Virus record (IMG/VR): IMGVR_UViG_2737471862_000006
DNA: 19,368 bases
Direction: 5' to 3' (one strand)
Source: a virus
Taxonomy: Duplodnaviria > Heunggongvirae > Uroviricota > Caudoviricetes
Below are positions 171 to 17,816 of the stretch, in pieces. The position numbers and the translations under genes were made by a program. Below the pieces are notes generated by a model. That model had not been told where the DNA came from. It saw nothing but the letters and a program-made list of their open reading frames with translations, and did not search any database. Every line of letters begins with the position of its first letter. The stretch's first letter is position 1.

Positions 171-635
171 TTACTTTAAACACTGCTCGGTTATGTATTG
201 CTGAGCACCTTCAAGTTGGGCCTGCATCATTACCAGTCGTTCCCGGAGGGTGAAATAATCCCGTTCAGCGGTGTCTGCCAGTCGGGGGGAGGCTGCATTA
301 TCCACGCCGGAGGCGGTGGTGGCTTCACGCACTGACTGACAGACTGCTTTGATGTGCAACCGACGACGACCAGCGGCAACATCATCACGCAGAGCATCAT
401 TTTCAGCTTTCGCATCAGCTAACTCCTTCGTGTATTTTGCATCGAGCGCAGCAACATCACGCTGACGCATCTGCATGTCAGTAATTGCCGCGTTCGCCAG
501 CTTCAGTTCTCTGGCATTTTTGTCGCGCTGGGCTTTGTAGGTAATGGCGTTATCACGGTAATGATTAACAGCCCATGACAGGCAGACGATGATGCAGATA
601 ACCAGAGCGGAGATAATCGCGGTTACTCTGTTCAT
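171..635 (-). CDS. Rz-type i-spanin (inner-membrane spanin), 154 aa
   Basis: Near-identical by recollection to lambda Rz (N-terminal TM segment, coiled-coil body). ATG at 635..633 overlaps the endolysin TGA (ATGA). The track ORF extends to a GTG at 647; the ATG at 635 is preferred. Confidence 0.9.
230..415 (-). CDS. Rz1-type o-spanin lipoprotein, 61 aa, embedded in Rz in the +1 frame
   Basis: Signal peptide with lipobox VVGC, proline-rich PPPPP and PPP tracts; wholly nested inside the Rz gene in another frame, as in lambda Rz/Rz1. Confidence 0.85.
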
Positions 636-1129
636 TGCTGACCCCACAAACAGATTTCACGCTCAATCTCACGACGTGTCATGAGACCTTTCCATTGCTT
701 ACCGCCAGCATATGTCCAGCGACGTAGCTGATCACATGCGCCTTTGATATCGCCCTGGTTTATTTTGCGAAGAAGCGTCGATGTTCTGAAATTGCCAGCA
801 CCCACGTTGTAAACGAATGAGTAAAGAGCGCCGCGCGTTGTTTCCGGTATATCGACTTTGATGTACGGGTTAATTTGTCTGGCGACAGTGGCAAGGTCTT
901 TATTCAAGAGTGTTTTGCATTCTGCTTTGGTATACGTTTTACCGAGCATGATGTCTTTTCCTGTATGCCCGTGACATACAGTCCATACACCAACAATATC
1001 TTTGTATGGTATGTAGCTGACACCTTCCAGACCATCGTTACCACTTGGGCCAGTGATTAACACTGATGCTATAGCAATTGCTCCGCCACCAATAGCAGCA
1101 GCAACGACTTTTCGTAATGATGGAGGCAT
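632..1129 (-). CDS. SAR endolysin, T4-lysozyme family (phage 21 R-like), 165 aa
   Basis: N-terminal Gly/Ala-rich weakly hydrophobic signal-arrest-release segment ([18 protein letters not shown]) followed by an E...D...T catalytic triad region ([24 protein letters not shown]). Start ATG overlaps the holin stop. Confidence 0.9.
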
Positions 1130-1344: not shown

Positions 1345-1595
1345 AGCCTCACCTCCGCACGGAACGGATGGCATAGTTATTATGTGTAGGCTTTCAGACA
1401 CATCAATCAGAGCCTTAATTGATATATATGCTGGAGACGATGCAATATAAAAAGCTCGCCGTAGCGAGCTAATGAAATGTATTTCTCTGATATTATGTTT
1501 ATTTGTATTAGCTCAGACTTGACATCACAGGTTTCGTATATAGAACATCATCAAATCTGTCAGTTTGCTATGAATGAGATATAGTAATTGAAGAG

Positions 1596-1991
1596 CTAAC
1601 CTCGCATGTCAAAGCCAGATTTCTGAAAATCTCTGTAGACTTCCGGATTGTTGAAGGCCGGAAATTTGGCTTTATGAGCTGCGGACTTTATCGCTTCGCA
1701 ATAGGCTTTATCACCGTTACTGGTAGATATTTTTAACGCCGTGCCATCCTGAGAGAATTCCATATGCAACCTGCATTTTTTCCCTTTCCAGTTATGCGGC
1801 TCATCAAGTTTGGCATTAATTGCAGCTCTGATTCCCCGCGCTTGCGCCCCCCATTCATCCTGATCATCCCAGCGTCCTGAACTGCAACTACCTGTAGCAG
1901 TAGTTTTGTGGCAATCTGAAGGGTGTAAAGGTGTGCATCCCGCAACAAAACCGACCCAAAAAGTCAACATAACGATTTTCTTTAATCCCAC
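1596..1991 (-). CDS. Lipoprotein with TolA C-terminal-domain (domain III)-like tail, 131 aa
   Basis: GTG start with SD GGAG; signal peptide plus lipobox FVAGC; C-terminal GKKCRLHMEFSQDGTALKI...YCEAIKSAA...FPAFNNPEVYRDFQKSGFDM follows the TolA domain III pattern (GK.C.L....G.LL.I...LC.AA....P.PP...VY..F....DF). Confidence 0.7.
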   Translation of the reverse strand: MGLKKIVMLTFWVGFVAGCTPLHPSDCHKTTATGSCSSGRWDDQDEWGAQARGIRAAINAKLDEPHNWKGKKCRLHMEFSQDGTALKISTSNGDKAYCEAIKSAAHKAKFPAFNNPEVYRDFQKSGFDMRG

Positions 1992-2141
1992 TTCTTGCTC
2001 CTCAATCCATTAAAATCTCAGCAATAGTAGTTGTTACGTCCGCCACTGGCTCAGAGCTGACTATCCGCTAAATTTAGCTCAGTGCCGTAGCTGTGTCAGA
2101 ACAAACCTAAGCCGAAACCGTTTATTACAAAACAATAAATA

Positions 2142-2570
2142 TCAGGGTTTAAAATCCAGCACCCCATTTTGAAATACTTTATATACTTCCGGCGAAGGGG
2201 GGGCAGGTATATCAGCATTCTTTATCGCATTCATCGCTTCACGACATAAATCGAGGTCTCCACTTTCTCTTTTAACCTCCAGTAGAAGGCCATTCGGGGC
2301 CATATGCATTCTCAGTGTACACTCTTTTCCTGAATACTTACTCGCATCCCCGAACTGTTTTTCGATGGCGCTCTTGATTTGATGGGCATACAGACGGATA
2401 TCCTCACTAACATCAGAAGTACGTTCAGATGAACTCACATACTGTGTCTCTATTGCTTTATCGGAGTAATATGATGTACGGTCATGATAATTTGTCGATA
2501 CAGCATCAGTGCACCCGATAATAATCCCACTAATAATCAACGTAAGAATTGATGCGCTACGAAAACCCAT
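2142..2570 (-). CDS. Lipoprotein with TolA C-terminal-domain (domain III)-like tail, 142 aa; paralogue of 1596..1991
   Basis: ATG with SD GAGG; lipobox IIGC; C-terminal ~80 aa (HQIKSAIEKQFGDASKYSGKECTLRMHMAPNGLLLEVK...LCREAMNAIKNADIPAPPSPEVYKVFQNGVLDFKP) closely resembles the C-terminus of E. coli TolA as I recall it (...GQIKSAIESKFYDASSYAGKTCTLRIKLAPDGMLLDIK...PKPPSQAVYEVFKNAPLDFKP). Confidence 0.7.
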   Translation of the reverse strand: MGFRSASILTLIISGIIIGCTDAVSTNYHDRTSYYSDKAIETQYVSSSERTSDVSEDIRLYAHQIKSAIEKQFGDASKYSGKECTLRMHMAPNGLLLEVKRESGDLDLCREAMNAIKNADIPAPPSPEVYKVFQNGVLDFKP

Positions 2571-2733
2571 TTTTCCTCACATATGTCATATAGTAAAGGA
2601 TTATATATACCGTTGTTTTGGACGCTCAAACAGCGAATCAGATCAAATAAAACGCACATTTGTTAACATTTACACAAAGTCTGCGTGGGATATTCTGAAA
2701 GAATATCCATAATGTGGAGAGAATCTATTGAAG

Positions 2734-3158: not shown

Positions 3159-3190
3159 CCCAAAAAGAACCGCCTAAACAGGCGGTTGGT
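3159..3190 (-). terminator. Candidate Rho-independent terminator (minus strand)
   Basis: Minus-strand reading AACCGCC-tgtttag-GGCGGTT followed by CTTTTTGG. Confidence 0.45.
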
Positions 3191-3431
3191 CAATACAAAG
3201 GATGCTTCGTCTTTATTATAGTAATCTGAGGCGTCGGGTGTCTTGTATCAGACAACATATTGTCCCGCTAAACAGCGAATTACAAACCACCCTGCAATGA
3301 TCTCTCATCTCATTTTATATGAGTTGACGACATCAGGATAACGCATCATCAGCCCCTGCCAAGAAATATCAAAACTCCCGCCAGCAATGTGTTATCACAA
3401 TATTGTAAAAAAAACACAGCACCGAAACTAT

Positions 3432-3614: not shown

Positions 3615-4157
3615 TCAAGCCATTTTCTCAGCAAATGATTCACGCATGGGAATATATAGGGCATACTCAGCAACAGCTAACCAATTAGCAATCCGTTTTT
3701 CGCATGTGCTAAAACACCACTCTGGGTGTGCATCATTTAGCAATTCAGCCATTTTGCGCTTAGTCATCCCCCGCCCTTCATAGCGTTGCCGGAGAATGCA
3801 AATCAATCCTGGATGCTCTGCCAGCACCTCACTTATGACTCGATCAATACATAACGCCTCTGCATCAGTACAATGCGCCAGCCAGCTCTTTTGCTTGCCG
3901 TTGATCATCTCTCGCAAAAACGCTTCCAGCTCAGCTTTCTCTATTCCCGCTTTTTTCATTCTGCGCAGGGCTTCATTAATGGCTGTTTTCGTCAGTTTTT
4001 TGGATGCCAACAACTGATTGAACATATTCCCTGACCTGCCACCGCCAATATACGACCAGCGCCCCCACATACGTAGTTTTCCCTGAATCCAGACACTTTC
4101 CAGCGTGGTGAGGCGAAGGTGTTCTCCGCTTTTTCCTGTATTCGTTGGGTAAATCAT
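3615..4157 (-). CDS. Putative late-gene antiterminator (Q-like), 180 aa
   Basis: Call rests on position (last gene before a terminator/promoter-like leader and the lysis cassette, after ybcO-like nin genes) and basic, Cys-containing composition; ATGA overlap with the upstream gene. No sequence match recalled to lambda Q itself. Confidence 0.5.
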   Translation of the reverse strand: MIYPTNTGKSGEHLRLTTLESVWIQGKLRMWGRWSYIGGGRSGNMFNQLLASKKLTKTAINEALRRMKKAGIEKAELEAFLREMINGKQKSWLAHCTDAEALCIDRVISEVLAEHPGLICILRQRYEGRGMTKRKMAELLNDAHPEWCFSTCEKRIANWLAVAEYALYIPMRESFAEKMA

Positions 4158-4444
4158 AAATGACCTTTCTTTCTCCAGATTTCTTGTGTGCGAAAAACCC
4201 CTTCAGCATGCATCAGGCGCAATTCTTCTTTGGTGTAATCGCTGGTTTTTACCCGCCCGTCGATTAGATCGTGGCATGAGCTACAGGCTATCGCCGCCTG
4301 CATATCATGTGGTTTTGTCGCTGTTCCGCACGTCCCCGCCAGCCTGTAATGCGCCAGCACAGAGGTTTCGGGATTGTGATTGCAGTAGCCAGGGATTCTG
4401 ATCTGGCACATCTGGCCTTTAGCCGCTTTACGTAAATTCACCAT
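4154..4444 (-). CDS. YbcO-like (DUF1364) putative nuclease, 96 aa
   Basis: 96-aa Cys/His-rich protein (C..C...H...C..C.H) matching in size and pattern the DLP12 nin-region protein YbcO; start overlaps the upstream stop. Confidence 0.65.
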   Translation of the reverse strand: MVNLRKAAKGQMCQIRIPGYCNHNPETSVLAHYRLAGTCGTATKPHDMQAAIACSSCHDLIDGRVKTSDYTKEELRLMHAEGVFRTQEIWRKKGHL

Positions 4445-5043
4445 TACGCAAACTCCAGTAGTTGTGCGGCCACATTTTCAACTTCCTCCTGAGAGGAGAA
4501 TTTACGGAACAGAATCCAGTTCCACAGCACATTCAGTACAGATTTATAAACCTGCTGAAACTCGACTTCGTCCATATTCGCAAAAGCGATGGATTTTGCC
4601 CGACGCCCACGGCTACCGTCCGGATAAATATGCTCGGTGTAAAATCCGGCCTGAATGGTTACCCACTCGCGGAAAGCCTCAAACGACTTTAGCAACGCCG
4701 TATCCCGGGTTCTACGAGTCGCAACGGTGTTAAGGTATTGCTCTGCGGCATCACTCAGGGCTGGCGTGTGTTCCCGACCAACTGATTCGCACAGGTAATC
4801 AACGAAACCAGACAGCAGTTCTCGTTCGCGAGGCGTGATCGCCCCACCGACCGGAGTCCAGTAATCGAATCCCAGTTGCAGGAGTTTGAAAAAACGCTTG
4901 TGGAATGCGTAGTTACGCACACGCTTAAAGTCTGCGTGTATCCACTCACCTATTTTGATTTGATGCAGAAAATCGCAACTCTCCGGCGTCGCCGGGAGAA
5001 GTAAACCAGAAGAGGTTTGTTTGACCAGTTGTATATGCGCCAT
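4444..5043 (-). CDS. DUF1367-like lambdoid nin-region protein, 199 aa
   Basis: Resembles the conserved prophage protein family that commonly precedes DUF1364/YbcO in lambdoid nin regions; translationally coupled to the ybcO-like gene. Confidence 0.55.
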   Translation of the reverse strand: MAHIQLVKQTSSGLLLPATPESCDFLHQIKIGEWIHADFKRVRNYAFHKRFFKLLQLGFDYWTPVGGAITPRERELLSGFVDYLCESVGREHTPALSDAAEQYLNTVATRRTRDTALLKSFEAFREWVTIQAGFYTEHIYPDGSRGRRAKSIAFANMDEVEFQQVYKSVLNVLWNWILFRKFSSQEEVENVAAQLLEFA

Positions 5044-5323
5044 TTCTCAATCTCTCGATGGCGCAGCGCAGCAGATGCCAGTTGTTCAGGCTGACGAATA
5101 AAGTATAAATAAACTGGCTATGGTGTAAAGCCCCACATAGCATGAACAAACACTACATATCAAATAGCTGGTACAAGGATAGAAATACGACACTTATTAT
5201 TAAAAACGATTAGATAAATTACATTTTAATGTTATGCAAAAGTTCTTTTTTATCATAACATTTCAATAAAAGCATTACAGATGCAATCATCCCGTCATCA
5301 TCAATTATTTAAGGTGGTTAAAC

Positions 5324-5410
5324 ATGGAAAATAACAAGTTCGCACATCTCGCTCCTTTTTTATCCGTAATCCTTTTCGCTTGTTGTTTTATATGGGCATT
5401 ATTTTTATAA
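5324..5410 (+). CDS. Candidate small hydrophobic peptide, 28 aa (MENNKFAHLAPFLSVILFACCFIWALFL)
   Basis: Strong SD AAGGTGG 6 nt upstream of the ATG; single predicted TM helix; lies in the AT-rich island. Coding status unproven. Confidence 0.3.
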   Translation: MENNKFAHLAPFLSVILFACCFIWALFL

Positions 5411-5801
5411 AGTAGCCACATGATAAGTTGCTGGAATCATATTTCCCACTCAAGTCATTAACATTTGATAAGATATATCTAAAAGGACGCCTTTACATTA
5501 TTTATGCGTATATAATTTATTTATATACACAGTAAAGGTATCCTGGGAAAATATTTATCGTTAAAAAATACATCATAAATAATTAAGCTGAAATTTCAGA
5601 ACATAACTAATACACACAATAAGGTTCAGTAACAGTAATCTATGTGGACTACATCGAGATTTTTTGATTAAACTTTAATAACTTATTCCTAACACACAGA
5701 ATGCATAAACTAAAAGTAAAACAAATAGTTATACGAAAAACAACCATATTTATTCTATCTTCTCCTCTAATCAACATATCAATTATGTGTTTCATAACAG
5801 C

Positions 5802-5841
5802 TTGACATAACCCTCCAAAAGATGCATTTTTAATGCATGTT
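5802..5841 (+). promoter_or_regulatory. Candidate promoter (-35 TTGACA at 5802-5807) with NsrR-type operator (5819-5841)
   Basis: AAGATGCATTT-T-TAATGCATGTT matches the 11-1-11 NsrR inverted-repeat consensus (AAGATGCATTT-N-AAATGCATCTT) at 21 of 23 positions and overlaps the predicted -10 region, immediately upstream of the yeaR-like RBS. Confidence 0.55.
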
Positions 5842-5856
5842 TTGGAGGAGGTGGTT

Positions 5857-6195
5857 ATGACACACAAGAGAATTCCTAAAGATTGGGTAATCAAACGCTC
5901 AACTCCGTTCTTCACAAAAGAGAACGTACCTTCAGCGTTATTAACACATCATAATACAGCAGCAGGTGTTTTTGGGCAGTTGTGCGTAATGGAAGGCACT
6001 GTAACATATTATGGTTTTACTGATGAGAATGCTACTGAACCGGAGATAAAAGTAGTCATTAATGCTGGCGCTTTTGCAACAAGCCCACCACAATACTGGC
6101 ACCGTGTTGAACTAAGCGATGATGCTCAGTTTAATATTAACTTTTGGGTCGCTCCAGACTTTTCGGGCGAAAAAGTCTATAGCACCAAAAAATAG
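5857..6195 (+). CDS. YeaR-like DUF1971 protein, 112 aa
   Basis: ATG at 5857 preceded by SD GGAGGAGGTGG; resembles E. coli YeaR as recalled (RSTPFF, MEGTVTYYGF..E..AEPE, FNINFWVAP). The track ORF begins 24 nt upstream at a weaker start. Confidence 0.6.
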   Translation: MTHKRIPKDWVIKRSTPFFTKENVPSALLTHHNTAAGVFGQLCVMEGTVTYYGFTDENATEPEIKVVINAGAFATSPPQYWHRVELSDDAQFNINFWVAPDFSGEKVYSTKK

Positions 6196-6224
6196 ATGAT
6201 CATATTAAAAATGCTTTAACAGTC

Positions 6225-6810: not shown

Positions 6811-7467
6811 TCACAAAATTCTGAGAGTTTCTAAGATGGATAAAAGTGTTGGAAGCTGACTCTCTCTCACACGGAATCTACCCGTCCTAGATAATTCCGT
6901 TTCAATTCCGTTAACGAAGAAATGTACGGAATCAAAAACGGCCGAACTATTCATGTATTTATTCTGATAAATTTCTTGGAGATTCTTTGAGCTTACTATT
7001 TTTGTCTTTGCTAAAGTAAAAGGATCAACAGAGATATTAGATAGAGACATGGATTTTATCTTGATGTCAAAGCCCTCAGAAAGACCATTTACAATTTTTC
7101 TCAGATCAAATTCTACTGGTCTCAAGCCACTATCTTCACCAAATAGTTTTTGCACCATAGTATAAGGCACTTTCATACTTAATGGAGGATTAGTGGCATA
7201 TAGTATGATTTTTTTCCCTTGTCTGACGCCAAAGTCCACATTTAAGTAAGTTGCTATTTCAACCTCTGAACGCTCGCCATTAGCATATTCTAAGCTTTGC
7301 TTGCTAATGCTTCTCATGGTAAATCTTAGTTTAAGCACTTCAGAGTTATTAATGATTTGAAAACCATATCCTTTATCTTCATCATAGAGGTTGTCATTTA
7401 CTTTATGTAATAACTCACTTTTAGTTATATCCTTTTCTGCTTTATAAATTTTTACCTTTATCATCAT
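6811..7467 (-). CDS. Hypothetical protein, cassette gene C (218 aa from the ATG at 7467)
   Basis: ATG at 7467 overlaps the stop of gene B (ATGA) and is preceded by SD AGGAGG; AT-rich codon usage; no recognisable motifs. The track ORF start at 7494 is a TTG. Confidence 0.6.
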   Translation of the reverse strand: MMIKVKIYKAEKDITKSELLHKVNDNLYDEDKGYGFQIINNSEVLKLRFTMRSISKQSLEYANGERSEVEIATYLNVDFGVRQGKKIILYATNPPLSMKVPYTMVQKLFGEDSGLRPVEFDLRKIVNGLSEGFDIKIKSMSLSNISVDPFTLAKTKIVSSKNLQEIYQNKYMNSSAVFDSVHFFVNGIETELSRTGRFRVRESQLPTLLSILETLRIL

Positions 7468-8711
7468 CCAGCCTCCTGATTCAAAGTCTCGCAAGACATA
7501 GCTTTCGTTACTGGGTATCGCTTGGTATGCTCTTCGATAATAAAGTCATTAATCAAAAATATTTTATCTTCTAATTGTTTCATGACTTGATCAAAGTCTG
7601 CGTCACTGAGTTTTTCTCTCTCTGCGGATGCAGAGTTGCTTTCTTTGTATAACGCTCTGAATTTTATATTTTTCCCAAGATATTTATCATCGAAACTAAG
7701 TTCAAAAGTTATAGTATGATTCTTAACTACTGAGGAAAATGACTTCCATCGAATTAAGCTTCGATAAAACCCATCACTGCACAGTTCCTTAATTTGAGGT
7801 GCGTTCACTAATGATAGGCCATCATACGCGGCATTGTTAATGTTAAAAGTTAGGTTTTCATCATCGTCAGATGCCATTTCCTGATTATTAATGTCATCAT
7901 CATTTTCGTTATCTGTAGAAGGTGAAATCTTGTTTAATAACTCTTGTGTTTCTTCGTTATTATTTCCTTCGAGATTATCTCCATTAATATCCAGAGATGT
8001 TTTTATTCTGCTTACTCTAACCTTTTCAAGACCAGCATATTCAAGTCCTGTTTTTTTATAATTTCCATCAAAATCATAAAGATGAACAGCAAAAATATTC
8101 CTAAGATCTGTATCGACGATACTTGATAAATCTATTTCGTTGACAACTATGTTGTTACAAACTGTTGATGAATATGTATCAATTATTTGCTTGAGAATTT
8201 CTGAAATGCGTGGCGTATAGTTATATCTTACTGAAACATATCCTTTTTTTACTATAAAAACTATACTCCCACTGTACAATTTTTTCTGCTGAAACTTACC
8301 CCTTCTAAAATCAAACTCAGTATAATCAATAGATATATGATAGGTTTGCAAGCCTGAGTAATGATCAATTTTCTCATGCCCTAGCAACTTGGGTCTATTT
8401 TCTTTCACTTTGTTTACAACGTCATAGAGTTTCTCTATATCAAATTCTTCATATATACGTTTTACTGAGAAGACGTCTTGGCTGGGTTTGGTTGCCAGTT
8501 TATCTTGTACTTCTCTGATGTGATTATATGAAAATGGCAGGTCTGATAATTTTTCTATCAATACCTCTTTTGATAAGTTAGATGGGAAAATTATCCCTCT
8601 ATTGAAGGCGATTTTCCTTAATGTAACATCTGTGATTTTTGCACTGTTAGAGTGGAGGGCGGTATAAATGTCACTTTCGTTTGAAAACAACGTAGCTTGA
8701 TATTTATTCAT
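7464..8711 (-). CDS. Hypothetical protein, cassette gene B (415 aa) with acidic low-complexity central region
   Basis: ATG with SD AAGGAG, 10 nt after the stop of gene A; central Asp/Asn/Glu-rich stretch (NNNEETQ...DNENDDDINNQEMASDDDEN); no Walker or other motifs recognised. Confidence 0.6.
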   Translation of the reverse strand: MNKYQATLFSNESDIYTALHSNSAKITDVTLRKIAFNRGIIFPSNLSKEVLIEKLSDLPFSYNHIREVQDKLATKPSQDVFSVKRIYEEFDIEKLYDVVNKVKENRPKLLGHEKIDHYSGLQTYHISIDYTEFDFRRGKFQQKKLYSGSIVFIVKKGYVSVRYNYTPRISEILKQIIDTYSSTVCNNIVVNEIDLSSIVDTDLRNIFAVHLYDFDGNYKKTGLEYAGLEKVRVSRIKTSLDINGDNLEGNNNEETQELLNKISPSTDNENDDDINNQEMASDDDENLTFNINNAAYDGLSLVNAPQIKELCSDGFYRSLIRWKSFSSVVKNHTITFELSFDDKYLGKNIKFRALYKESNSASAEREKLSDADFDQVMKQLEDKIFLINDFIIEEHTKRYPVTKAMSCETLNQEAG

Positions 8712-8721
8712 GTCATACTCC

Positions 8722-9813
8722 TTATGAAAAGTGACATTTTCTATTCACCTGCTTGCTGGCAACCTGGTACTCAAATATAGATAGCTTTTGATTAACAAAA
8801 GGAATGGATACTATTTTTTCCTTTAACGTTTCTATATGAGATTGAGTGAAAGAATATATTCCTATGTAATCATTAATGGCGGATTGCAAATGAATGCTTG
8901 AGTGTGATGAGAACGGAGTTATAACAAATATTTTGTCAAATTGATTGAGTAATTGATAGTTAAATATATACTCTAAAAGAAATATAAAGTGGTTACTGGA
9001 ATCAACCTCTTCCTTCCAGAATATATTCAATATTTTATTTCTTATTCTATCGCCACCATCATTTCTAATATATTCGTGTTCATATGAGTAAAAAATCATC
9101 CCAGATGTTATCATTTCAATTGTGGCTGGAAGGATTTTCCCTTTCGTTGCTATTTTATTATGTTTGTCAGGGTAAAAATATGTACAGTTCTCTATCTCAG
9201 GAATTTTTTGCCATAACATATTTGTTTCTTGTGTTACTTTGTCAGTAATTCCTCTTCTAGTCTCGATGTGTTCTGTAACATCTAGTAAAAATCTGATCAT
9301 AGTTGGGTCAAAAACGGCAATCACAGAGTTCTCTGGAAAATCATAACTTGCTGTGGCTGCTCCATTTAATTTCTCAATTAAATCAGAGTCATATTTATTG
9401 TCATGATTATATATAAAAAGTAGGCCGTTAACTTGATATTTCTCATTTGTGCTGTCAACAAATAGACGCCGCCACTCAGGACTTCTTGGCGCGCAAGCTA
9501 CCTGTTGTGATAAACTTCGTACAGTGTTCAATATTGATTTTGTACCGTCAAGCGTGCTGGCACAATAAGATTTTAAATCTGTTTGTATATACTGAGTTAT
9601 ATCTGAATAAGGATCTTTATATTTGAAGACTACATCCGTAGGATGAGTTTTTTTTGGGTTTTCAGATAAAAGTTGTTTAGCGTTTAGATGAGATCTCAAA
9701 CAACAGTCCCAACTTATATCCGTTGTATTTTGGGTTTTCCAGCCTAACTCATCAAAAATTCTACTGGAAATGATACCTGCAATCTCATCAATATTCTTAG
9801 TTTCGCCGCCCAC
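8722..9813 (-). CDS. Hypothetical protein, cassette gene A (363 aa, GTG start)
   Basis: GTG start preceded by SD GGAGGA; possible but weak PD-(D/E)xK-like pattern near the N-terminus (HPTDVVF ... IQTDLKSY); no confident family assignment. Confidence 0.55.
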   Translation of the reverse strand: MGGETKNIDEIAGIISSRIFDELGWKTQNTTDISWDCCLRSHLNAKQLLSENPKKTHPTDVVFKYKDPYSDITQYIQTDLKSYCASTLDGTKSILNTVRSLSQQVACAPRSPEWRRLFVDSTNEKYQVNGLLFIYNHDNKYDSDLIEKLNGAATASYDFPENSVIAVFDPTMIRFLLDVTEHIETRRGITDKVTQETNMLWQKIPEIENCTYFYPDKHNKIATKGKILPATIEMITSGMIFYSYEHEYIRNDGGDRIRNKILNIFWKEEVDSSNHFIFLLEYIFNYQLLNQFDKIFVITPFSSHSSIHLQSAINDYIGIYSFTQSHIETLKEKIVSIPFVNQKLSIFEYQVASKQVNRKCHFS

Positions 9814-17440: not shown

Positions 17441-17635
17441 ATGAGATATGACAATGTTAAACCATGTCCATTTTGTGGTTGTCCATCAGTAACGGTGAAA
17501 GCCATTTCAGGATATTACCGAGCGAAGTGTAACGGATGCGAATCCCGAACCGGTTATGGTGGAAGTGAAAAAGAAGCACTCGAACGATGAAATAAACGAA
17601 CCACTGGAAATAATAATGGAGGTGTTCATGTATAA
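17441..17635 (+). pseudogene. ralR: ralR toxin (restriction-alleviation / DNase) interrupted by an in-frame TGA at codon 50
   Basis: MRYDNVKPCPFCGCPSVTVKAISGYYRAKCNGCESRTGYGGSEKEALER then TGA (17588-17590), then in-frame NKRTTGNNNGGVHV and TAA (17633-17635); total 64 codons as in K-12 RalR, where this codon is TGG (Trp) by my recollection. Confidence 0.65.
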
Positions 17636-17816
17636 AATTACCGCCACTATTGAAAAGGAAGGTGGCACTCCTACTAACTGGACAAGATATTCAAAATCTA
17701 AACTAACGAAATCAGAATGCGAAAAAATGCTCTCAGGTAAAAAAGAAGCAGGCGTTTCCAGAGAGCAGAAAGTAAAACTGATAAATTTTAATTGCGAGAA
17801 ACTTCAGTCCTCGTGA
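17628..17816 (+). CDS. rcbA: RcbA/YdaC-like protein, 62 aa
   Basis: MYKITATIEKEGGTPTNWTRYSKSKLTKSECEKMLSGKK...; ATG overlaps the end of the ralR frame; SD GGAGGTG. Confidence 0.65.
   Translation: MYKITATIEKEGGTPTNWTRYSKSKLTKSECEKMLSGKKEAGVSREQKVKLINFNCEKLQSS

Follow-up and report, generated by a model that had tools for sequence, protein, structure and literature searches.

Why would a lambdoid prophage carry, directly upstream of its holin gene, two small genes whose products end in a likeness of TolA domain III, the common entry point of group A colicins and filamentous phages? The genes in question lie on the minus strand of a 19,368-nucleotide stretch of viral DNA (IMG/VR record IMGVR_UViG_2737471862_000006; this whole stretch is called the window here), and we refer to their products as P1 (142 amino acids, aa) and P2 (131 aa). 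Both open reading frames are intact, with an ATG start in P1 and a GTG start after GAGGAG in P2, and their translations contain the peptides to which an initial annotation of the sequence had drawn attention (IIGC, FVAGC, KYSGKECTLRMHMAPNGLLLEVK, LCREAM and IPAPPSPEVYKVFQNGVLDFKP). Coordinates are collected in Table 1. We propose that P1 and P2 may be mobile-element lipoproteins that block entry by receptor mimicry, a reading to which we give slightly less than an even chance.

The similarity to TolA is pronounced at the level of both profile and fold. Against the Pfam profile of the TolA C-terminal domain (PF06519, gathering cutoff 25), P1 scores 82.6 bits (E 2.4e-23) and P2 54.6 bits (E 1.3e-14), and phmmer against the PDB sequences returns TolAIII chains only (E 5e-28 for P1 and 5e-9 for P2). 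Residues 55-142 of P1 align without gaps to residues 334-421 of Escherichia coli TolA with 52 of 88 positions identical (59%), and residues 51-129 of P2 share 27 of 79 positions (34%). In the AlphaFold2 models of both proteins, the N-terminal parts are disordered and the C-terminal domains, with pLDDT values of ~90, adopt the α/β fold of TolAIII, composed of three helices and a three-stranded sheet. Foldseek superimposes the P1 domain on 2x9a_B with a root-mean-square deviation of 0.6 Å over 88 residues and the P2 domain on 3qdp with 1.1 Å over 86 residues; the top matches of both domains are all TolAIII, at target-normalised TM-scores of 0.92-0.96, and TonB C-terminal domains occur only among the distant hits. 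The intradomain cysteine pair of TolA (C363/C388) corresponds to C84/C109 in P1 and C73/C98 in P2 and is invariant in both families. By profile and modelled structure, P1 and P2 each carry a genuine TolA domain III, homologous to residues ~329-421 of E. coli TolA, as the initial annotation had suggested.

What precedes this domain sets both proteins apart from TolA. Domain I, the transmembrane anchor that couples TolA to TolQ and TolR, is absent, and so is the Ala/Lys/Glu-rich helical domain II; the N-termini are lipoprotein signal peptides instead, and the linker before the domain, 29-34 aa long, has no predicted helix. Each signal peptide combines a basic n-region with a hydrophobic h-region (MGFR... 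followed by ILTLIISGIIIGC in P1, MGLKK... followed by IVMLTFWVGFVAGC in P2) and ends in a lipobox of the form [LVI][ASTVI][GAS]C. The lipobox cysteine is invariant, both as Cys20 in P1 variants down to 65% identity and as Cys19 in 12 P2 homologues, which bears out the signal peptides and lipoboxes originally assigned to the pair. Since the residue at position +2 is Thr and not Asp, the +2 rule predicts Lol-dependent sorting to the outer membrane, where P1 and P2 should occupy the inner leaflet; the Rz1 lipoprotein of the same window has Thr at this position as well. Without the TolA membrane anchor, the two proteins cannot be coupled to the TolQR motor. Their genes also differ from tolA in location, as they reside on a prophage or plasmid and not in the tol-pal operon. 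The NCBIfam equivalog models of TolA match P1 and P2 via their last ~98 positions only (293-386 of 387 in NF007065, 265-362 of 362 in TIGR02794). Both proteins stay below the NF007065 cutoff of 213 (107.8 for P1, 53.7 for P2), and with TIGR02794 (cutoff 59.45) P2 again falls short at 47.2, whereas P1 passes at 75.6 through its C-terminal domain only. Judged by domain content, neither P1 nor P2 is TolA itself.

P1 follows a simple layout, in which a Ser/Thr-rich linker of ~34 aa connects the signal peptide to domain III, and the alignment places the junction exactly at the start of that domain. The ratio of nonsynonymous to synonymous substitution rates (dN/dS) lies at 0.09-0.24 for the domain of P1, against 0.4-0.8 for the linker. 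The initial annotation described both proteins as a lipobox followed by a TolA tail, and while this holds for each of them, P2 contains more than a tether and a domain. Its first 29 mature residues include a Cys-x8-Cys loop, with cysteines C27 and C36, and a W/acidic motif, a stretch that is absent from TolA. This segment is nearly invariant across genera, its motif recurs in other 50%-identity clusters, and its dN/dS of 0.02-0.10 compares with 0.02-0.11 for the whole mature protein, so that the segment is constrained at least as strongly as the TolA domain of P2. The AlphaFold2 pLDDT over the same segment is below 50. We also considered SSGRWDDQDEWG of P2 as a mimic of the colicin TolB box (DG[ST]GWSSE...W), but the two differ in Trp-Trp spacing (6 instead of 7) and in their core residues, which leaves this idea as speculation.

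The surfaces by which TolA binds its ligands allow a more specific comparison. Strand β3 of TolA takes up colicin N, the N1 domain of g3p (g3p-N1) and the N-terminus of TolB by β-strand addition (PMC4339652; PMC7391070), and a proline at D418 or K420 abolishes binding of colicin N, g3p and TolB (PMC4339652). Colicin A uses the opposite edge, formed by L375-P380 together with K368, K379 and K396 (PMC3365938). According to the alignment, the C-terminal LDFKP of P1 is identical to TolA 417-421, with D139 and K141 in the places of D418 and K420, and the C-terminal FDMRG of P2 retains the β3 pattern of hydrophobic, Asp, hydrophobic and basic residues (h-D-h-R). At the colicin A site, P1 has LLEVKR for LLDIKP, keeps K379 and K396, and carries His in place of K368; in P2 the segment reads ALKIST and all three lysines are lost. 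P1 can hence be regarded as a near-faithful copy of both docking surfaces and P2 as one that seems to keep the β3 edge only. As P1 preserves the LDFKP strand and most of the colicin A contacts, a decoy function is mechanistically plausible.

The arrangement of the genes hints at how they might be expressed, with the reservation that the promoter and terminator sites in the window are consensus-level scan matches only. A σ70-like site lies 30 bp upstream of the P1 ATG, the window scan found no terminator between P1 and P2, and a terminator-like hairpin is located 3' of the P2 stop and 5' of the holin gene. This putative order of promoter, genes and terminator within a late operon is the classic layout of a moron, which predicts expression in the lysogen and read-through after induction. 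The late-promoter-like site and hairpin downstream of the Q-like gene are, from their position, probably pR' and tR', the late promoter followed by a terminator that responds to Q. The genes indeed occupy the Q-to-S moron position recognised in the initial annotation, with the Q-like gene upstream and holin, lysozyme, Rz and Rz1 downstream (171-1401). In related prophages the flanking Q and lysozyme/Rz modules differ, and the slot between Q and holin contains P1 and P2, P1 alone, or other genes (TerB, NanS-p); it attracts accessory genes in general. An STnc100-family RNA element, a structured element of ~200 nucleotides, is found between the late-promoter-like site and P1; in related prophages it is present in several copies on both sides of the P1 variant (loci L120/L121, 4704-4877, 5599-5803 and 5854-6061; L120, 2589-2802; L001, 5444-5634). 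In this the element behaves like a boundary repeat of the slot and not like a single small RNA gene, and it may mediate moron exchange. A slot with no TolA-domain genes was seen in the prophage adjoining ydfJ in E. coli O157:H7 EDL933 (L125, 9162-14851), where a helix-turn-helix regulator, two tRNAs, a TerB-family gene, DUF3927 and a NanS-type esterase separate a DUF1133 Q-like gene from the holin.

The distribution of the two families points to separate histories. The P1 family (46 clusters) is confined to E. coli and Shigella, and in all loci examined its members are located in lambdoid prophages, flanked by a Q-type gene and a holin, some accompanied by P2 and some not. Several of these slots additionally contain tRNAs, NanS-p esterase genes or a regulator of the AraC type, and related P1 variants lie 1.4-3 kb from the holin, separated from it by further morons. 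Relatives of P2 form at least 370 clusters at 65-89% identity and occur in Citrobacter, Enterobacter, Klebsiella, Raoultella, Serratia, Pantoea, Rouxiella, Leclercia, Yokenella and Buttiauxella. Most are single genes on chromosomes across the Enterobacterales, in neighbourhoods that are ordinary and non-syntenic. A search for synteny around the chromosomal P2 orthologues found none, except for a few Enterobacter and Klebsiella loci that adjoin a glutathione peroxidase gene. An 88%-identical copy of P2 is present on ~600 plasmids. On I-complex conjugative plasmids (IncB/O/K/Z) it directly follows the nikB relaxase gene after a gap of 68 bp, and on pO157-type plasmids it is placed between the psiAB-hok leading region and toxB. 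The initial annotation took the two genes for diverged tandem paralogues. We reject a tandem duplication, since P1 shares 59% of its residues with TolA but only 29% with P2, and since the families differ in host range and history. P1 and P2 are better read as two separately acquired moron genes of a Rac-type lambdoid prophage.

The pair is common, and its linkage to the holin gene is tight. Of 80 IMG/VR viral-contig loci, 79 preserve the set of P1, P2 and holin amid variable Q and lysozyme/Rz modules. The full locus is found in 774 of 5426 complete E. coli genomes (14%), a partial one in 1365, and one sequenced phage, mEp460_ev081, contains it. Positions 1400-2800 of the window, the region searched, are 100% identical to a prophage adjoining ttcA in E. 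coli ES5. In a mosaic P1 allele (locus L123, 311-739), synonymous divergence (pS) from the window is 0.07 in the domain and 0.55 in the N-terminal part, comprising signal peptide and linker, a difference that indicates recombination inside the P1-type gene, apparently at the junction of linker and domain.

Short lipoproteins with a TolA domain extend well beyond these two families. A profile built from both families and run against 1.84 billion representative proteins recovers 579 relatives at E ≤ 0.001; among the best 149 of these, 96 are at most 170 aa long, and at least 61 of the 96 have a signal peptide and lipobox. The linkers of these lipoprotein clusters are highly diverse, the named sources are Erwinia, Klebsiella, Enterobacter and Serratia, and the labels are all automatic ('TolA C-terminal domain-containing', 'colicin import membrane protein'). 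About 690 plasmids, mainly from Klebsiella, give distant TolA-domain matches. On the 10-kb ColRNAI plasmid NZ_CP031718.1 of Klebsiella pneumoniae (1512-2245), a 123-aa lipoprotein with lipobox LTAC and the C-terminus NAPLDFRP is encoded by a gene that overlaps by 4 bp with one for a 121-aa, signal-peptide-bearing TonB C-terminal domain, and this pair adjoins an operon of tRNase bacteriocin, immunity and lysis genes. The lipoprotein has the same architecture as P1 and P2 and likewise belongs to a mobile element, although it is only ~27% identical to P2 and, unlike P1 and P2, is paired with a TonB domain beside a bacteriocin operon; its presence is noted in one survey paper. On the Klebsiella IncR plasmid NZ_CP141857.1 (5217-6246), a 144-aa lipoprotein TolA domain with lipobox ITAC is encoded directly downstream of a thioredoxin-fold gene, a pairing that suggests help with disulfide formation in the TolA domain.

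Together, these features are consistent with P1 and P2 being outer-membrane-tethered decoys that make the cell tolerant to colicins and filamentous phages, although we hold this only tentatively and somewhat short of an even chance. Under the outer membrane, P1 and P2 would present the same β-strand-augmentation edge as the real TolA, at the site where the TolA-binding epitopes of group A colicins and g3p first reach the periplasm. They would compete with resident TolA for the colicin translocation domains and g3p-N1, and an invader captured on such an unenergised, dead-end copy of its co-receptor would stall during import. The outcome would be colicin tolerance and exclusion of filamentous phages for the cell that carries the prophage. 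The published affinities, ~1 µM for colicin N with TolA and ~40 µM for TolA with TolB (PMC4339652), imply that moderate expression in a lysogen could intercept invaders with little damage to Tol-Pal. With its diverged colicin A surface and its constrained Cys-loop, P2 probably covers a different ligand. The plasmid contexts (I-complex, pO157 and the klebicin plasmid) fit protection of the carrier cell and not lysis. Pili of I-complex plasmids are the receptors of the TolA-dependent phage If1, whose g3p is seen in complex with TolAIII in PDB entry 2x9a, and a pilus-bearing cell would benefit from plasmid-borne relatives of P2.

Such a mechanism would have precedents. Cor (of φ80, N15 and HK022), Llp (T5), TraT and Bor are small lipoproteins of mobile elements that block entry and are often morons near lysis genes. 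P1 and P2 resemble them in size, predicted anchoring and carriage, but are unrelated in sequence and fold, and would mimic a periplasmic co-receptor whereas the known proteins act on outer-membrane receptors such as FhuA. Immunity mediated by g3p, which Boeke, Model and Zinder are said to have described in 1982 as Ff superinfection resistance and colicin tolerance of infected cells, involves the same pair of g3p N1 and TolA domain III. In that immunity the receptor is saturated by its ligand; a decoy would be the mirror image, a receptor copy that saturates the ligand. Levengood-Freyermuth reportedly obtained colicin tolerance in 1993 with periplasmic TolAIII. Free TolAIII expressed in the periplasm in the laboratory is reported to disturb Tol functions, and such a domain that competes with TolA is a functional precedent for the decoy model (Levengood-Freyermuth 1993; Wan & Baneyx 1998), with the difference that the laboratory constructs are soluble and overexpressed while P1 and P2 are natural, predicted to be lipid-anchored, diverged and under purifying selection.

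Several observations weigh against decoys. The literature yielded no experiment or expression data on P1 or P2, and PADLOC is without a model for either. The candidate promoter of P1 is only a consensus match, common to a 91% variant locus and not to the more distant P1 variants. The colicin A lysines are lost in P2, a decoy that also binds TolB would bear a cost, and the orthologues of P2 on the chromosomes of Enterobacter and further genera could have a housekeeping role in the envelope. Linkage to the holin and the place in the Q-dependent late transcript fit a role in the lytic cycle equally well. In that role, P1 and P2, made at high level once Q drives the late operon, would bind up the TolB N-terminus and possibly also CpoB; TolB and Pal would not be separated, Pal would fail to bind the cell wall, and the loosened outer membrane would aid the spanin step and the release of virions or vesicles. 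This is the main rival of the decoy reading; we regard it as unlikely, yet as deserving real weight. TolB uses the β3 edge that is conserved in P1, and leakage of periplasmic proteins is reported for TolAIII overexpression (Wan & Baneyx 1998), but the interaction of TolA with TolB is weak, and lambdoid phages generally lyse efficiently without such genes. Similarly, the position directly upstream of the holin, kept with it in nearly all viral-contig loci, has to be set against the hairpin before the holin and the promoter-like site, which make up the architecture of a moron and not of a lysis cassette, and against the related P1 variants that other morons separate from the holin. Inhibitors of Tol-Pal could also loosen the envelope during conjugation, to which the I-complex gene close behind the relaxase operon would correspond, but relatives of P2 occur as well on the non-conjugative pO157 and on chromosomes with no lysis genes nearby. 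Relatives away from lysis cassettes weaken any reading that is specific to lysis.

A further explanation, which we consider improbable, is that a TolA/TonB-type fold has been reused as a generic β-augmentation module for an unrelated ligand. The likeness to the colicin and phage sites of TolA would then reflect ancestry and not function, and the Cys-loop of P2 would define a partner of its own, for instance an outer-membrane protein, a tailed phage or a contact-dependent toxin. The constraint on the P2 N-terminal segment and its conservation in several clusters agree with this, as do the scattered chromosomal distribution of the P2 family, the diverse linkers of the wider class and the loss of the colicin A contact lysines in P2. 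It accounts poorly for the ligand edges of P1, which are almost unchanged from TolA at 59% overall identity; the pairing of TolA and TonB domains on the klebicin plasmid points specifically to bacteriocin import machinery, and no gene neighbourhood suggests another partner. That the genes are mere debris, non-functional tolA fragments captured by illegitimate recombination, is extremely improbable. The pseudogene call on P1 by the Prokaryotic Genome Annotation Pipeline (PGAP) and the equivalog matches limited to the C-terminus would be expected from fragments, but the open reading frames are intact and preceded by Shine-Dalgarno sequences, the signal peptides are complete and are ones that TolA lacks, and the fusion point falls precisely at a domain boundary. 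The invariant lipobox, the purifying selection and the retention of the locus in hundreds of complete E. coli genomes argue in the same direction, and on the grounds of lipobox, conservation and dN/dS we reject a pseudogene in the case of P1.

Extended to the wider class, the decoy reading would imply that mobile elements of the Enterobacterales carry widespread decoys of the import machinery, namely outer-membrane TolA tips and, on some bacteriocin plasmids, secreted TonB tips. These would confer broad, immunity-protein-independent tolerance to Tol- (and Ton-) dependent bacteriocins and to pilus-specific filamentous phages, with the Cys-loop of P2 as a second binding module (e.g., for TolB or Pal) that makes a bivalent trap. 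This extension we consider doubtful. Were P1 and P2 decoys, they would represent a natural defence by receptor mimicry that current defence catalogues do not list, and could partly explain the colicin insensitivity of wild E. coli without matching immunity genes; present in ~14-25% of complete E. coli genomes, and with relatives on pO157 and on I-complex resistance plasmids, they would explain a share of this natural insensitivity. They would also be relevant to colicin and phage therapeutics and to the use of M13-based tools in natural isolates, and conjugative plasmids could offset by them the phage liability of their pili. If the proteins inhibit Tol-Pal instead, they would offer a natural genetic tool to tune outer-membrane stability and vesicle production.

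The similarity to TolA as such is not new. PGAP already names the proteins 'cell envelope integrity TolA C-terminal domain-containing protein', and PHROGs family 5772, listed with unknown function, contains both. In the full-text literature we found no functional study of proteins of the P1/P2 type, and 'TolA protein' is mentioned only in gene lists. One transcriptomics paper reports 32-fold induction by ciprofloxacin of a TolA-type gene, EDL933_2012 of CP-933O; as the EDL933 prophage inspected here has a TerB-family gene in the equivalent slot, this induction does not count here as expression evidence for P1 or P2. On the identical locus in RefSeq (L002, 18197-19003), P1 is annotated as 'tolA, incomplete, missing N-terminus, pseudogene' and P2 is started at Met8, by which the charged n-region is lost. 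Both look like annotation artefacts, and the 'tolA' and pseudogene labels are probably explained by the TIGR02794 match via the C-terminal domain. The P1 label and the P2 start should be corrected.

Table 1. Positions of P1, P2, their parts and the neighbouring features in the window
Feature	Position	Strand	Basis
P1 gene, 142-aa lipoprotein precursor	2142-2570	-	Open reading frame, Pfam TolA, PHROG 5772
P1 lipobox I-I-G-C, aa 17-20, +2 Thr	2511-2522	-	Translation
P1 TolA-III domain, aa 55-142 (TolA 334-421), with Cys pair and β3 LDFKP	2145-2408	-	Alignment, AlphaFold2/Foldseek
P2 gene, 131-aa lipoprotein precursor	1596-1991	-	Open reading frame, Pfam TolA, PHROG 5772
P2 lipobox V-A-G-C, aa 16-19, +2 Thr	1935-1946	-	Translation
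P2 mature N-terminal segment, aa 20-48, TPLHPSDCHKTTATGSCSSGRWDDQDEWG, Cys-x8-Cys loop	1848-1934	-	Homologue alignment, dN/dS
P2 TolA-III domain, aa 49-131, ending in β3 FDMRG	1599-1847	-	phmmer, AlphaFold2/Foldseek
σ70-like promoter TTGAGC-18-TATAAT, candidate moron promoter	2600-2629	-	Consensus scan, 10/12
Terminator-like hairpin AGCTCGC-TACG-GCGAGCT, then TTTTTATATTG (T-run)	1443-1470	-	Scan
STnc100-family RNA element between late promoter and P1	2681-2867	-	Rfam RF02076, 86.6 bits (gathering score 47)
Late-promoter-like site (3215-3244), then terminator-like hairpin (3168-3187)	3168-3244	-	Scan
DUF1367 gene	4444-5043	-	Pfam
YbcO gene	4154-4444	-	Pfam
Q-like late regulator gene	3615-4157	-	Pfam DUF1133, marginal Phage_antitermQ match
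Phage 21-type holin	1129-1401 (RefSeq: 1129-1344)	-	Pfam; RefSeq of identical locus
Lysozyme	632-1129	-	Pfam; RefSeq of identical locus
Rz	171-647	-	Pfam; RefSeq of identical locus
Rz1	230-415	-	Pfam; RefSeq of identical locus

The prophage in the window is a lambdoid prophage of the Rac type, present in reverse orientation with its late genes on the minus strand. Rfam detects the RalA small RNA with 225 bits (RalR/RalA type I toxin-antitoxin; 17634-17812 on the minus strand, 17556-17816 on the plus strand), and the identical RefSeq record annotates ralR followed by recE, recT, xisR and intR, which confirms the Rac lineage. Rac of K-12 is not known to have a lysis cassette, unlike the prophage studied here, which retains one. 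In the early region (6811-9813, minus strand), three consecutive open reading frames of 227, 415 and 363 aa match Hp3, Hp2 and Hp1, models of candidate defence systems in PADLOC (E 4e-11, 1e-10 and 5e-41, respectively); in RefSeq, the 363-aa product is listed as a PD-(D/E)XK nuclease and its two neighbours as hypothetical proteins, and the trio looks like a candidate anti-phage system. Positions 5100-6200 form a strongly AT-rich island (GC 0.27-0.31) that contains a DUF1971/TehB-family gene (5833-6195, plus strand), probably another inserted accessory gene, on the strand opposite to the surrounding prophage genes.

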